A DNA stretch of 36,270 nucleotides from a virus. Lineage: Duplodnaviria; Caudoviricetes. Of this stretch, positions 1-36,270 are shown piece by piece. The notes below the pieces were generated by a model that had not been told where the DNA came from, did not search any database, and was given only the letters and a program-made list of their open reading frames with translations. The DNA lies in IMG/VR virus record IMGVR_UViG_3300030606_000028, positions 1 to 36,270 of that record; one strand, 5' to 3'. Position 1 is the stretch's first letter; each line of letters starts with the position of its first letter. The translations under genes were made by a program, and so were the position numbers.

Positions 1-272
1 GCGAGCTGAAAGCTCGCGGCAGAGAGGGCGCCCCTGGCTCTGGGGGATGGGGCCGGGGAGGTGGGCCAGCGCGAGCTGAAAGCTCGCGGCAGAGAGGGCG
101 CCCCTGGCTCTGGGGATGGAGCCGGGGGGTGGGCCAGCGCGAGCTGAAAGCTCGCGGCAGAGAGGGCGCCCCTGGCTCTGGGGATGGAGCCGGGGGGTGG
201 GCCAGCGCGAGCTGAAAGCTCGCGGCAGAGAGGGCGCCCCTGCGTCGGGGAATGGAGCCGGGGAGGTGGGCA
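1..272. repeat. Tandem array of 68-70 bp GC-rich units, each with a CGCGAGCT-GAA-AGCTCGCG hairpin; continues from the window end
   Basis: Units start at 1, 71, 139 and 207 (last one degenerate); the same units occur at 36080-36270. Confidence 0.95.
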
Positions 273-353
273 GGATGGCGGCAGGCGGCGGCGATGCCGC
301 CGCGTCTTCCCTGTCCCCGCCGTTGTTCAGGCGGGGCCGTCCGAGCCGCCGCC

Positions 354-388
354 AAAAAAAAGCCCCTGGGGGCCAAACCCCAGGGGAC
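354..388 (-). terminator. Intrinsic terminator of the adenine-free operon
   Basis: Minus strand CCCCTGGGG-tttggc-CCCCAGGGG followed by a run of 8 T, directly after the TAG at 391-389. Confidence 0.85.
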
Positions 389-907
389 CTAAAACAACGG
401 CGGCTGAGCGGCGACGGGGACCCAGCGCCACCCGGCCGCCCAGACCCCGCCGCCGGCCGCCACCCACGACCCGCCGGGCCAGGCCGGGAGGGCGGCGGGG
501 CCGCCGCACCAGAAAACCACGAGGGGATGACCCAAACCGGCGGCAAACGCCGACTCTGACCACGACCCTGACCCAAAGCCGCCCCAGCAACGGGACGACG
601 AGGCCGAGGGGACCAGCCCGGCCGGGCAGGGCCCCCCCACGAACGCGACGAACCCGCCAGGCGACGCCGCGACCAGGGCCGCCGCGCGGCGGGCAAAAGC
701 GGACCGACCCTGGCCCCACTGGCCAGAGGCGACGGCAAACACAGCCGCGCCAGGGGCGGCAGCGCGGACCAGGGCCGAAGCGCCGCGGCAGCAGGACACG
801 GCCAACGGCCGCCCGCCCAGGGCCGCGACCACCCGGCCGACCAGGCCCCCCCACGCGGGAGCCAGGGAGCGCGAGCCGCCCAGCCCGACCTGGGCCGGCC
901 CTAACAC
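389..907 (-). CDS. Adenine-poor gene C, ~172 aa, probable SLOG/DprA-like nucleotide-binding fold
   Basis: GTG start at 907 (or 910) overlaps the TAG of gene B in GTGTTAG; GGGGGT SD-like element upstream. Motifs VGLGGSRSL, VSCCRGASALVR, AFARRAAALV and GSGSWSESAFAAGLGHPLVVF resemble the SLOG pattern (GSR, GxAxGxD, RN, GSGT..A...G.PV.V). Confidence 0.7.
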   Translation of the reverse strand: MLGPAQVGLGGSRSLAPAWGGLVGRVVAALGGRPLAVSCCRGASALVRAAAPGAAVFAVASGQWGQGRSAFARRAAALVAASPGGFVAFVGGPCPAGLVPSASSSRCWGGFGSGSWSESAFAAGLGHPLVVFWCGGPAALPAWPGGSWVAAGGGVWAAGWRWVPVAAQPPLF

Positions 908-1200
908 CACACCCCCAGGGCGACCACGACCACCACCCGGCCGCGGCGGCGCACGGAGAAGCCCGGCGGCGGCGCACCCGACCGCGCCAACCGAGCCGCA
1001 GCGCCGGCCGAAGCCAAAACCACCCGCAACGAGACGGCCCCGCCGGGCCGGAGGCGCAACGACAGAGCGCGAACCCCCCAGGGCCGGGCCGCCAGAGCCA
1101 GAGCCCGCAGCCCGGCCAGGACCGCCGGCGACCCGACCCGGGCCAGGGCCGACCCCAGGGCCGGCGAACAACGACGAGGCAACCGGACGGCCCCTAACAC
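901..1200 (-). CDS. Adenine-free gene B, 99 aa hypothetical protein (Arg/Ala/Leu/Val-rich)
   Basis: GTG at 1200 overlaps the TAG of gene A (GTGTTAG); GGTGGT SD-like element upstream; no A on the coding strand between 1194 and 903. Confidence 0.6.
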   Translation of the reverse strand: MLGAVRLPRRCSPALGSALARVGSPAVLAGLRALALAARPWGVRALSLRLRPGGAVSLRVVLASAGAAARLARSGAPPPGFSVRRRGRVVVVVALGVWC

Positions 1201-1529
1201 AACGGACCACCACAGCCAAAAACCGGCCAGGGGGAACCAACCGGGGAGAGCACGGGAACGGACACAGCCCACAGCCCCGGCCCGGCCCGCCGCACGAACA
1301 CGGGAACCCCCAGGCGGGAGGCCCAGCCCGCCGCGCAAGACGCAGCGCGAGCAGGAGAGACAAACCGCAGCGAGCAAACCCACCCCGAAAAAGAACGAGA
1401 AGAACGGCGAACGACCCAACGGGAGAGCGCAGCCCGGGCCGGCCAAACAACGGCGGCGACCGACGGAGCCGCACCCGACCCCCCAGGGACCCACAAAAAC
1501 ACAGAAGACAAAGGAGACAAAGGAGACAC
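1194..1529 (-). CDS. Adenine-free gene A, 111 aa hypothetical protein
   Basis: GGGGTG-5 nt-GTG start at 1529, in frame with track ORF 1194..1643; its only A is in the TAG stop; protein-like segment WVVRRSSRSFSGWVCSLRF...VFVRR...WAVSVPV. Confidence 0.65.
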   Translation of the reverse strand: MSPLSPLSSVFLWVPGGSGAAPSVAAVVWPARAALSRWVVRRSSRSFSGWVCSLRFVSPARAASCAAGWASRLGVPVFVRRAGPGLWAVSVPVLSPVGSPWPVFGCGGPLC

Positions 1530-1590
1530 AGCAACACCCCACAAGCGCCCCACAGCGAGGGGGGAGGGCGCAACCCCCAGACACACACAC

Positions 1591-1600
1591 ATGATAACAC
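1591..1600 (-). promoter_or_regulatory. Extended -10 promoter (TGtTATCAT) of the adenine-free operon
   Basis: Minus strand GTGTTATCAT; its two A are the only minus-strand A between 1196 and 1646. Confidence 0.7.
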
Positions 1601-1620
1601 AAAGCGCACCAAAGAACCCA

Positions 1621-1658
1621 ACGGAAACCCCACGCAAACCCAACGCTTAGCCAACGAT
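1621..1658. promoter_or_regulatory. 11-bp-phased operator-like motif, copy 1
   Basis: ACG at 1621, 1632, 1643 and 1654; CCCAACGCTTAGCCAACGAT matches CCCTACGCTCAGCCTACGAT (2967) at 17/20. Confidence 0.5.
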
Positions 1659-2126
1659 GGAAACGCGAAACGGCCCGGCCCAGAGACAACCCACCTTTAG
1701 GAATTGAATCTACATCAACCCCCGGCGAACGCGACGACAACGACGGGGTAACGTTTCCGTTCCGTTAAAAAAAATAAAAAAAAAGGGGGGTGGAGGACCG
1801 GACCGGGCCAAGTCGTTAAGGTCGGACCGAGACGTTAAGGTGGGGCCGGGCGTTCGTTGTTTTTCGTTGTTTGTGGGTGGGGCCGGGCGTTAAGGTCGGG
1901 TTTTACCGATATGGTTGGGGCGTAGCAGAGCTAAGAGACCGGTCGGCGGGTTGAGCACCAAAAGAAAGGTTTGGGACCGCCGAGGCCCGCGCGGCGGTCG
2001 GGGGAGAATAAGTTACGAACGGCCGACCAGGGCCGGGGGACCGAGACGCTGGGGGCAATGGCTAATGTGGGCGCACGGCGCGGCTCGGAGCCGTGGCAGG
2101 CAAAGGGCGGTCGTCTCAACCCGGAG

Positions 2127-2157
2127 AATTAACAATTAAGAATTAAGAATTAAGAAT
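2127..2157. repeat. (AATTAAG)n heptamer repeat
   Basis: aattaac-aattaag-aattaag-aattaag; similar tracts at 7968-8003 and 30038-30081. Confidence 0.85.
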
Positions 2158-2262
2158 GGATTGATGGGTGGGGGGTGGCGGTTATATCATTAAGGTGGGG
2201 ATTTGTCAAGGGGGGCTTTGGTCCTACGAGGAGTGGAGCCGCAAGCGCCAGATGCGGAACGG

Positions 2263-2550
2263 CTAAACAATTTTTTTGGCTTCTTGTTCAAAATCTTGAA
2301 TCTGGCCGGTTTTTATATCCTCTATGAATTTTGTGTATCGTTCCCGGCGTAACCTGATGGCGCGCCGGAATTGGATTTCGGAGTGGAGCAGGGTCAGGAG
2401 CTTTTTGAGCGGGGTGAGGTATAGCTCGATTAGGGCCAGGTCTGAGAGGACCTTGAGCAGCCAGAAATATTTGGGTGGATAGGGGCTGAGGAGCATGACG
2501 ACCGAATCGAGCAGCAGCAGGGCCAGGCCGAGGTAGCCGTGGATTTTCAT
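2263..2550 (-). CDS. Small membrane protein with two hydrophobic segments
   Basis: 95 aa ORF coupled to the upstream gene; hydrophobic N-terminal half. Confidence 0.65.
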   Translation of the reverse strand: MKIHGYLGLALLLLDSVVMLLSPYPPKYFWLLKVLSDLALIELYLTPLKKLLTLLHSEIQFRRAIRLRRERYTKFIEDIKTGQIQDFEQEAKKIV

Positions 2551-2924
2551 TTGAGCAATTCCTCGACCTCTTCCTTATTAATACGCCACTCCTGGCCGAT
2601 CCCGACTTTGCGCCCCATCTTCCCGGCTCGGCACCAGCGCCGGATAGTTTCGCCGGTGACTCCCAGGATGGCGGCGGCCTGGATTGTGTCCATCTGGTCG
2701 GGCAGGTTGGTCGGGTCGATGCTGGGTGGGTCGGCTCGTTGGGCTTTGAGCACCTCTTTGGCCCAGGCTTGATCCGGGGCAGGGTGGCGGGTCCAGCCTG
2801 GCCCGCGCTGCCAGGTGGGTTTGCCGGTTAGTTCTTCCTGGCCAGGGGGGGGGTGGAGATGGACCAGGATACGGTGGCGGTGGGTGATTATGGTTTGTGG
2901 GCCTTTTTGGTAAATGTGTAGCAT
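2547..2924 (-). CDS. Excisionase/MerR-type HTH DNA-binding protein
   Basis: C-terminal MDTIQAAAILGVTGETIRRWCRAGKM...WRI; GGAGG SD; extended -10 TGtTATACT at 2949-2941. Confidence 0.8.
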   Translation of the reverse strand: MLHIYQKGPQTIITHRHRILVHLHPPPGQEELTGKPTWQRGPGWTRHPAPDQAWAKEVLKAQRADPPSIDPTNLPDQMDTIQAAAILGVTGETIRRWCRAGKMGRKVGIGQEWRINKEEVEELLK

Positions 2925-2940
2925 TTGTTCCTCCGGGGAT

Positions 2941-2986
2941 AGTATAACACAGGTCGTGTGATCGTACCCTACGCTCAGCCTACGAT
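2941..2986 (-). promoter_or_regulatory. Extended -10 promoter with upstream operator-like motif, copy 2
   Basis: GTGTTATACT on the minus strand; CCCTACGCTCAGCCTACG at 2967-2984 is identical to 35887-35904. Confidence 0.6.
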
Positions 2987-3206
2987 TTGGCCGGGGGTGG
3001 GGGTCGGGGGTGGGGAATTTTTGGGGGGTTCAATATTGGACCTGGTGGCGCCCGGCGCGGCGGCGTCAGCCGCCCGCGCCGGGCATCGGGGAGGGTTGGC
3101 CGGGCTACCCCCCCTATTCCCCCCGTTTACGGGGGGCTGGGGGGGTAGCCCGGCGTCGGGGAGGGTTGGCCTGGCGCGGCTGGCCGTCGCCCGGCGTCTA
3201 AGAGGG

Positions 3207-7867: not shown

Positions 7868-8004
7868 AATGCGTTCCTTTCTATGGTATAATAGTGACGG
7901 CCCGGCGCGAGCGTTCCCGCCGGGCTGCCCCCGGTTGGCGATGCAGGGCCGGCCGGGGGCTTTTGATAGAATTAAAAATTAAGAATGAAAAATTAAGAAT
8001 TAGT

Positions 8005-29019: not shown

Positions 29020-30038
29020 CGAATGTACTTCAGCAGAAGGGGTTTATCATCGACCAGATCGTCTCGGAGATGTTGGGCCCGCCGAGCCTGATCCAGATTT
29101 TTGATCTGCTGATTCGGGTCAGTCCCTATGGGGTGCCGATTGGGGGGATTATTGGCTGGTCGGGGGCGAGTGTGCCGGCCGGCTGGGCGCTGTGCAATGG
29201 GGGCAGCGGCACGCCGGACCTGCAGGGGAAGTTTATTATTGGGGCCGGCGGGGCCTACGCGATTGGGGATAGCGGCGGCTCTGAGACGGTGGAAATTAGC
29301 CACACTCACGCCGCCGGGACGCTGGCCACGTCGAGCGAGGGGCACAGCCACACGGTGGGGACATTGGCCACGTCGAGCGAGGGGCACAGCCACGCGGTTG
29401 GCACCCTGGCCACGAGTTCGGAGGGGCACACCCATGGCGACGGCACCCTGGCGGCCGACAGCGATGGGCACAGCCATGGCGGCGGCACCCTGGCCACGGC
29501 CAGCGACGGCCACAGCCATGGCGGCGGCACCCTGGCCACCGATAGCGACGCGCACAGCCACACCTCGGGCACGCTCAGCACGGCCAGCGACTCGCATACT
29601 CACACGCTCAATGCCTACACGGGGACGGATGGAACCGGGGTTTTTAACGTCTACAACACCCCGAGCAACTCCGATGCTCACAGCCACGATGTCAACACCG
29701 GCTCGACCGGTTCTGATAGCCACAGCCACAGCGTCAACTCCGGCTCGACGGCCAGCGATTCGCACTCGCATAGCGTGAGCAGCGGCTCCACGGCCAGCGA
29801 TTCGCACTCGCACACGGTCAGCGGGAGCACGGCCAGCGATTCGCACTCGCACACGGTCAGCGGGAGCACGGCCAGCAGTTCGCACTCGCATACGATGAGC
29901 GGCTCCACGGCCAGCAGTTCGCACTCGCACACAGTGAGCGGCTCCACGGCGGCCGCCACCTGGGGCGCGGGGGGAACGGGCACGTTTACGATTTTGCCGC
30001 CGTACTACGCGCTGGCGTTTATTATGCGGGTGGTGTAG
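29016..30038 (+). CDS. Tail fibre with collar domain and 15 HxH repeats
   Basis: PIGGIIGWSG...GWALCNG...TPDLQGKFIIGAG; C-terminal ILPPYYALAFIMRV. Confidence 0.85.
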   Translation: MTNVLQQKGFIIDQIVSEMLGPPSLIQIFDLLIRVSPYGVPIGGIIGWSGASVPAGWALCNGGSGTPDLQGKFIIGAGGAYAIGDSGGSETVEISHTHAAGTLATSSEGHSHTVGTLATSSEGHSHAVGTLATSSEGHTHGDGTLAADSDGHSHGGGTLATASDGHSHGGGTLATDSDAHSHTSGTLSTASDSHTHTLNAYTGTDGTGVFNVYNTPSNSDAHSHDVNTGSTGSDSHSHSVNSGSTASDSHSHSVSSGSTASDSHSHTVSGSTASDSHSHTVSGSTASSSHSHTMSGSTASSSHSHTVSGSTAAATWGAGGTGTFTILPPYYALAFIMRVV

Positions 30039-30097
30039 AATAGAATTAAGAATTAAGAATTAAGAATTAAAAATTAAGAATTTGGAAAGGGAATCTG

Positions 30098-36079: not shown

Positions 36080-36270
36080 CAGAGAGGGCGCCCCTGGCTC
36101 TGGGGGATGGAGCCGGGGAGGTGGGCCAGCGCGAGCTGAAAGCTCGCGGCAGGGAGGGCGCCCCTGGCTCTGGGGGATGGGGCCGGGGAGGTGGGCCAGC
36201 GCGAGCTGAAAGCTCGCGGCAGAGAGGGCGCCCCTGGCTCTGGGGATGGAGCCGGGGGGTGGGCCAGCGC
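36080..36270. repeat. Continuation of the terminal tandem array; 36131-36270 matches 1-140 with one mismatch
   Basis: Direct comparison of the two ends. Confidence 0.95.

Follow-up and report, generated by a model that had tools for sequence, protein, structure and literature searches.

The adenine-poor operon and its genes

We analyzed the whole of virus record IMGVR_UViG_3300030606_000028 (36,270 bases; sample type, soil), referred to below as the window. Near its first base this complete phage record carries, on the minus strand, an operon of three translationally coupled genes (A, B and C, the second of them a probable gene) whose coding strand is almost free of adenine (A). In the order in which the operon is read, the features of this region were as follows.

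1601-1695, minus strand: A-poor stretch above the candidate promoter; base count, 3 A in 95 nucleotides (nt)
1592-1600, minus strand: candidate extended -10 element TG-N-TATCAT, a consensus match read from the sequence
1530-1591, minus strand: A-free leader, 0 A in 62 nt by base count, with the Shine-Dalgarno (SD) variant GGGGTG at 1540-1535
1194-1529, minus strand: gene A, 111 amino acids (aa) of ten kinds only, a putative Arg-rich small basic alpha/beta protein (profile matches, synteny, model)
901-1200, minus strand: gene B, a probable gene by layout only; A-free open reading frame (ORF) of 99 aa with 16 Arg, GTG start 1 nt before the TAG of gene A, SD-like GGTGGT at 1211-1206
389-907, minus strand: gene C, 172 aa, predicted SLOG-superfamily (DprA/LOG-fold) protein (homologs, structure model), SD-like GGGGGT at 916-911, alternative start at 910
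354-386, minus strand: intrinsic-terminator-like hairpin (stem 386-363, one A) with a U run, from a fold scan

Between 389 and 1591 the plus strand contained exactly 11 T (at 390, 405, 528, 555, 557, 569, 711, 720, 891, 902 and 1195), corresponding to 11 A in the 1,203 nt of the minus strand, which is the coding strand of the operon and otherwise consisted of 502 G, 397 C and 293 T. This recount reproduced every position listed by an earlier reading made without database searches (the sequence-only reading), as well as its statements that no T occurs in 903-1194 or 1196-1591 (T-free runs of 292 and 396 nt), that the leader lacks A, that the genes start with GTG, end with TAG and follow A-free SD variants, that the proteins of genes A and B are limited to F, L, S, C, W, P, R, V, A and G with no residue requiring an A codon, and that gene C holds eight A beyond the stops (8 internal and two stop-codon A were counted). 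Compared with 22.8% T in the remaining window, the T content of the tract corresponded to a binomial log10 P of about -115, while no run lacking one of the other bases exceeded 71 nt in the whole window; on these two grounds GC skew was rejected as the cause. Fourfold degenerate sites of the operon carried A in 2 of 318 cases, against 9.6% in the comparison within the window. The residual A stood in the contexts CA (7), TA (3) and GA (1). An assembly artefact, which the sequence-only reading had named as a risk, was ruled out: 142 homologous loci were collected, and contigs from two runs of one sample were identical in every letter across 213-3000, although these contigs possibly derive from the source sample itself and are not an independent confirmation.

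The edges of the operon were partly as the sequence-only reading had proposed. Positions 1592-1600 match the extended -10 consensus, and boxes similar to this candidate lie before gene C in loci L002 and L008; however, the element was not among the picks of a consensus promoter scan, and the depleted tract starts about 95 nt upstream of it. The stretch at 1601-1695 possibly belongs to a longer transcript from another upstream promoter. Likewise, the hairpin with its U run has the form of an intrinsic terminator but was no more stable than shuffled sequence (z -0.74). Since every stop codon requires A, open frames arise automatically in such a tract and are no proof of genes, which were therefore tested by homology.

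Searches of Pfam, PHROGs, PADLOC and Protein Data Bank sequences returned no named family for genes A, B or C of the window, and word-index searches for genes A and B gave no match. Gene A was later recovered by profile: a five-sequence profile matched 393 proteins at E <= 0.001, with the window copy scoring 86 bits against the family hidden Markov model (HMM). Among the best 150 matches, residues requiring A made up <=5% in 59 and >20% in 33, and relatives of ordinary composition therefore exist. Of the 112 loci with >=600 nt upstream, 42 had a gene of this family <=1.5 kb upstream of gene C, and two in-frame A-C fusion proteins were found. The AlphaFold2 model (predicted local distance difference test, pLDDT, 84) showed a small alpha/beta domain that gave no clear match in comparison with SPOR, RRM or LAGLIDADG-like folds (best Z 5.7, no Foldseek E < 0.03); a SPOR profile matched 1 of 106 homologs. 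Judged by these relatives, gene A is a real, conserved member of a mobile-element family that carries no name.

No homolog of gene B was found by word-index, profile/HMM, Pfam-type or ESM Atlas searches, the last of which also gave no usable match for one gene-A homolog. Gene B is nevertheless probable from its layout: it is joined to gene A by the junction GTG-T-TAG, which is repeated between genes B and C, and the sole A in 903-1591 builds the stop of gene A, one base after the GTG of gene B. The three-gene claim thus held for genes A and C through their homologs and, for gene B, through layout only. A resemblance of gene B to gene A noticed by eye was tried as a sign of a diverged copy and rejected, as the alignment scored below shuffles.

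Adenine loss across the gene families

Viral, genome and metagenome collections were scanned for relatives of gene C, using 80 of the 93 genome and 80 of the 353 metagenome matches. At least 184 loci were collected, and 142, the window among them, were left after one short match and near-duplicates had been dropped. Gene C contained a median of 1.4% A, with <=2% in 83 loci, <=5% in 123 and >10% in 5, and its carriers included Competibacteraceae, Cyanobacteria, Acidobacteriota, Ignavibacteria, Kapabacteria, Desulfobacterota, Rhodothermales and Anaerolineae. Because the search patterns favour A-poor amino acids, we relied on sites that the queries do not constrain, namely the synonymous, SD and stop-codon tests, which this preference leaves unaffected. 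At fourfold third positions A occurred in 433 of 18,114 cases in gene C (2.4%) compared with 10,567 of 56,547 in neighbouring ORFs (18.7%), and it was lower in gene C than in its neighbours in 89 of 90 loci. When 31 disjoint pairs were drawn from the 83 loci with <=2% A, their fourfold sites differed at 46% while carrying A at 39 of 6,004, and codon positions 1, 2 and 3 differed at 16, 13 and 46%, a pattern that shows gene C to be under purifying selection at the protein level by sequence comparison. The lost A was replaced chiefly by T (32% vs 21%) and next by G (34% vs 28%), which excludes simple A-to-G editing.

By these measures adenine has been removed by selection and not by skew or artefact, in agreement with the sequence-only reading: depletion reaches synonymous sites and the SD and is tied to the coding strand. 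Genes A and C, judged from their homologs, are members of widespread mobile-element families that share the low-adenine trait, being conserved, A-poor and syntenic. Homologs of ordinary A content, which the same reading had named as a possible refutation, amounted to the 5 of 142 gene-C loci with >10% A and sat among A-free relatives. On a rough tree, A-richer copies stood beside A-free ones at several places, which we read as repeated relaxation of the pressure; relaxed homologs with 14-23% A (L009:4239-4751, L015:6001-6375, L122, L176 and L010:1291-1590) offer natural controls for its absence. Further A-free ORFs with an A-free SD and a TAG stop lay in the tracts (L017:5302-5649, L012:5654-5941, L024:840-1136, L130:599-892, L116:4753-4956 and L143:88-648), none of which gave a convincing Pfam family; one such ORF is common to L116 and L128, and that of L143 starts Cys-rich and zinc-finger-like.

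The depletion extends to the signals of translation. Among 36 scorable gene-C starts (GTG 21, ATG 9, TTG 6) the SD core was GGGGG in 24 and GGAGG in 1, compared with 4 and 27 of 62 controls; a G of GGGGG can wobble-pair with a U of the anti-SD. In 8 loci (L027, L030, L036, L037, L039, L069, L116 and L128) another gene of the A or C family runs in the opposite direction, each time with 0-3.8% A on its own coding strand. The purged strand thus flips with gene orientation, which excludes one fixed strand of replication or transfer, and together with the SD change this ties the selection to the transcript. Such second A-free tracts, which in L050, L052 and L067 lie on the same strand, are separate, a few kb from gene C and hold mainly A-family genes. 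At the 3' edge, A returned to its ordinary level on average about 40-60 nt past the gene C stop, and in L184:1-1700 an A-free SLOG gene lies between two clear sigma-70-like promoters, followed by a DUF4326 gene of ordinary composition.

The A that remain are unevenly placed. With protein, codon usage and A count preserved in codon shuffles, GA was observed 375 times vs 453 +/- 9 expected and GGA 86 vs 147, while CA (808 vs 731) and AA (220 vs 204, z +3.5) were in excess and AG was neutral; neither ACA (25 vs 28.8) nor GANA, the complement of TNTC (22 vs 23.7 +/- 3.3), was avoided beyond the shuffles. Before an A-starting codon, G filled the free third position 22 times in 250, compared with 36% elsewhere, an effect spread over 97 alignment columns (80 of them without G) and absent from control genes. 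Relative to the number of preceding bases, GA occurred less often than CA in 55 of the 64 loci with >=8 A, and the held-out locus L191 contained 2 GA and 44 CA. Gene-C stops were TAG in 87, TAA in 26 and TGA in 25 loci (4 truncated), compared with 91, 143 and 107 in controls. These counts show that GA is avoided beyond the A count while CA is tolerated.

Gene C and the nature of the pressure

Profile comparison gave 106 gene C homologs at E <= 0.001 (7,996 candidates scored) with a median of about 4% residues requiring an A codon; the window protein has 6 such residues. Its AlphaFold2 model (pLDDT 94.5) matched TM1055 (Z 11.9), a molybdenum cofactor (MoCo)-binding protein (11.7), DprA (11.6), ShosA (10.3), LOG (10.1) and ThsA (9.3), and the top 26 structure matches (Z 8.7-11.9) were all DprA, ShosA, LOG, MoCo carrier, ThsA, PpnN or uncharacterised proteins. 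Foldseek ranked Helicobacter pylori DprA first (E 5e-4), with DprA chains leading the list. As modelled, gene C has the SLOG (Rossmannoid three-layer) fold. The likeness to DprA/Smf covers the fold (3uqz, root-mean-square deviation 3.1 over 135 aligned residues), the GSR loop and, in most homologs, the Asp of GxAxGxD, and that to ShosA the fold; however, identity to these proteins is 13-19%, gene C is a stand-alone domain of about 170 aa, and the window copy has Ser in place of the Asp. PF02481 (DprA/Smf) did not match the window protein above the Pfam cut-off and matched 8 of 64 homologs weakly (best E 0.0012), 2 of the 64 gave weak ShosA matches (E 0.004), and no PRTase-like (ShosT) neighbour occurred among the 150 neighbour ORFs scanned, a partial sample. 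LOG/PpnN, the MoCo carrier and the SLOG domain of ThsA share the fold of gene C (Z 8.7-11.9), but neither they nor the viral SLOG proteins match it as a family at the sequence level. The LOG motif is PGGxGTxxE with a catalytic Arg-Glu pair, and Glu118 of gene C lies within a G-S/T-x-x-E motif resembling its GTxxE. A tblastn search of gene C against curated plasmids and phages with the low-complexity filter on found no match.

Invariant or near-invariant positions of the family were G11-S12-R13, G38, G42, D44, R74 and S113-G114. In 248 aligned sequences an acidic residue stood at Asp44, which aligns with the GxD Asp of DprA, in 222 and at Glu118 in 18, with both in 0 and neither in 8 (5 of these gapped at 44); the 18, including the window copy, contain G-S-W-S-E. 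Glu118 is the sole acidic residue of the window protein, and its GAG codon provides the only GA of the 1,203-nt tract, from which we infer that the acid at Asp44 or Glu118 serves catalysis or ligand binding and is worth the price of a single forbidden dinucleotide. Glu118 proteins fell in three places of a rough FastTree too weak to count how many times Asp was independently exchanged for Glu.

Among the benefits proposed by the sequence-only reading, attack on adenine in RNA gave the best fit, in a GA-preferring form and not as MazF-type cleavage at ACA, which was not specially avoided. CmdT, the host attacker of the CmdTAC system, ADP-ribosylates N6 of adenine in GA of single-stranded mRNA and thereby blocks translation, and its authors point out that GA lies within SD sequences (PMC11618068). 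This target agrees with the ranking of GA over CA, with the altered SD and with the dependence on gene orientation, and an attack of the CmdT kind is therefore favoured; that the operon encodes a message immune to such adenine-directed, GA-preferring attack is, in our estimate from sequence patterns, an even proposition. Under it, the unit would be transcribed early from a promoter near 1595 while the host defends itself, in a CmdT-like manner, by modifying or cutting single-stranded RNA at adenines, so that the pressure would act on RNA and the attacker would be an mRNA ADP-ribosyltransferase or another A-reading enzyme. With its coding strand purged of adenine, GA first, the mRNA would stay translatable under attack. 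In the most speculative step, gene C would act on the ADP-ribose adduct, or on a nucleotide signal related to it, by binding or hydrolysis and thus restore translation of the ordinary early genes downstream.

On this reading, the SLOG protein of gene C is likely to be a counter-defence factor. For SLOG domains of viruses, the predicted targets are ADP-ribose derivatives and ribosyl N-glycosidic bonds, and these domains are associated with DUF4326 (Iyer et al. 2022, PMC9503650), and both L184 and L074 have a DUF4326 gene a short way downstream of gene C. The downstream neighbours of gene C (38 loci, 150 ORFs, the majority assigned to no family) included ArdA, ArdC, Gp157, ERF, Rad52, DdrB and PD-(D/E)XK proteins, by annotation a set expected where an early block for anti-defence and recombination begins. 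A more specific version, which we hold to be rather unlikely, is a self-immune antidote operon of mobile elements in which a SLOG protein of ten kinds of amino acid, with one catalytic acid kept at the expense of a GA, would strip N6-ADP-ribose from mRNA and restart translation while being encoded in a three-letter message that no adenine-directed ADP-ribosyltransferase could mark. If this were true, undescribed, widespread and broad A-targeting defences would exist in Cyanobacteria, Chloroflexota, Acidobacteriota and Competibacteraceae.

Several observations weigh against an RNA attack of the CmdT kind. Among the dinucleotides tested, CmdT gave substantial product on GA only (PMC11618068), and because this specificity leaves the purge of A in all contexts unexplained, we infer that a broader CmdT relative or several A-directed pressures would be needed. 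GA on the coding strand is TC on the template, and pressure on template DNA leaves the same signature. The link to ADP-ribose is thin, as Macro and NADAR domains were found in 0 of 22 virus records each and DUF4326 in 1 of 22, many of the records being fragments. At the 5' edge of the tract, only 11 of 88 loci had a -10 box, where chance would give 4.7 +/- 2.1, and the window tract itself begins some 95 nt upstream of the proposed -10. Residual A was not more base-paired than in controls (unpaired probability 0.47 vs 0.44, p 0.13), although an attacker specific for single-stranded RNA might have produced such shelter in stems. Finally, the loci are related, so that pooled p-values overstate their independence, and they were gathered with patterns favouring A-poor amino acids.

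The same orientation rule and GA signature (TC on the template) are predicted if thymine of invader DNA is modified, TC first, by a host enzyme, with RNA polymerase blocked on the template strand only; a T-free template would then be transcribable, and a DprA-like protein would bind single-stranded DNA (ssDNA) or remove the lesion. We regard this as unlikely, although it would suit both the lead of DprA chains in the Foldseek list and a depleted tract that reaches upstream of the proposed promoter. The known candidate, DarT, ADP-ribosylates the second T of TNTC, but its substrate is ssDNA and its effect is on replication (PMC5179494), a four-base motif would not demand the loss of all T, and GANA was not avoided beyond expectation. 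What stood of the T-free template proposed by the sequence-only reading is thus a possible broader modifier of template-strand thymine; its ultraviolet version was contradicted, since AA is enriched, AG is neutral and A flanked by pyrimidines was purged as well. Less likely again is a message that can be transcribed while a defence (Cad1/CAAD, RADAR or ATP nucleosidases) drains ATP, with the SLOG protein degrading a signal or salvaging nucleotides. A drain would account for A loss in every context, in leader, SD and terminator, and for the absent stem shelter, and the SLOG relatives include LOG, PpnN and ShosA; effectors converting ATP to ITP are known in type III CRISPR systems (PMC12993439). 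It predicts no dinucleotide preference, however, and gives no cause for the avoidance of GA and tolerance of CA at equal A count or for TAG over TGA, which weakened this benefit. Charging of tRNAs needs ATP in any case.

Escape from adenosine-specific RNases of the PfuCsx1 (Csx1/Csm6) or MazF type, in place of a base-modifying enzyme, seemed very improbable to us. PfuCsx1 cuts after adenosines, which would favour the purge of every A, but Csm6 cuts after purines (PMC9704534) and the family mRNAs are about 37-42% G; moreover, the bias sits 5' of A, and the Pfam Csx1_HEPN profile matched 0 of 5 carrier genomes, a small sample searched with a narrow profile. Doing without the tRNAs that carry U in their anticodon, which anticodon nucleases destroy, would fit proteins A and B being limited to ten amino acids and the avoidance of NNA codons, yet it leaves the A-free leader and SD, the stop choice and the avoided G before an A-starting codon unexplained, and we consider this benefit extremely improbable. 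No more credible is a by-product of local mutation without adaptive value, by A-to-G deamination or by A-specific mutagenesis like that of a diversity-generating retroelement. Such mutation would be strand-specific and include non-coding sites, but the fourfold A was replaced chiefly by T, which also speaks against the adenosine deamination suggested by the sequence-only reading; A was regained in several separate lineages and is ordinary again shortly past the gene C stop; and no reverse transcriptase occurred among the window ORFs scanned (a part of all ORFs) or the 150 neighbour ORFs, with no search made for a template repeat/variable repeat pair.

The sequence-only reading knew of no described system of this kind, and the full-text literature searched, which did not cover subscription journals and supplements, likewise held no description of an A-free operon. 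We therefore regard the trait as real, selected and undescribed in that literature, with a mechanism that stays conditional. Messenger RNAs lacking ACA escape MazF, and phages avoid restriction sites. Both escapes likewise remove the target of attack, but they drop a motif of 3-6 bases by synonymous change, whereas here a whole nucleotide is dropped, and with it go ten amino acids, the ATG start codon and the consensus SD. In CmdTAC, the target of CmdT (N6 of the GA adenine in single-stranded RNA, including the SD) is the motif most avoided here; CmdT itself is unrelated to these genes and GA-specific in vitro, whereas A was purged here in all contexts, and the escape described in the available text of PMC11618068 is by Alt.-3, which blocks activation, as opposed to a target-free mRNA. 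The viral SLOG proteins are predicted counter-defence enzymes acting on ADP-ribose derivatives, and the portion of PMC9503650 at hand does not mention A-free coding.

If an RNA attack of the CmdT kind is the cause, invaders would beat RNA-directed defence by omitting a whole letter from the transcript, and the pattern of residual A would be a fingerprint of attacker specificity; A-free genes would therefore serve as a search handle for new defences and for counter-defence proteins, which have to function during the attack. Whatever the mechanism, they provide natural proteins of about ten amino acids that are predicted to fold confidently, together with natural three-letter mRNAs, which is relevant to the evolution of reduced-alphabet proteins and to expression systems resistant to RNA-targeting toxins.

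The phage record and its other features

The ORFs of the window include genes for an integrase, ParA, a ParB-like protein, capsid, portal and tail fibre, and by this gene content it is therefore a temperate phage. One further feature bears on the form of the genome.

1-271, continuing at 36080-36270, no strand: 68-70 bp tandem repeat of about 6-7 copies overall (repeat scan)

As this repeat covers both ends, the genome is probably circular and the record broken at the repeat. Its part at 1-271 separates the terminator side of the operon from the early block on the minus strand, which contains DdrB-like and SprT-like genes and toward which the operon reads.

Of 301 genomes sampled within the phylum to which an Anaerolineae genome belongs, 60 contained distant homologs of the capsid (24-37% identity), which makes a Chloroflexota host plausible; this tally includes two genomes flagged unpublished and comes from that single phylum. 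Gene C was rare in the same sample (2 of 301), and close phage relatives sought through DdrB and capsid patterns were not found. No tract free of A or T occurred in ten prophage-like regions with distant capsid homologs (the lowest count was 12 per 200 nt), and the trait therefore tracks the gene families and not the phage lineage.

An Rfam scan of window 1-2300 gave no match. The non-coding stretch at 1790-1910 contains a recurring CGTTAAGGT-like word, an A-tract and 53 nt free of A on the plus strand, and appears origin-like or regulatory. Intergenic arrays of the heptamer AGAATTA or a variant occur at 2125-2157, 7968-8000 and 30042-30082, the first of which also matches further contigs of the same sequencing runs. 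Within the tail-fibre gene (29300-29950), 39-42 bp repeats code for SDSHSHTVSGSTA-like units.

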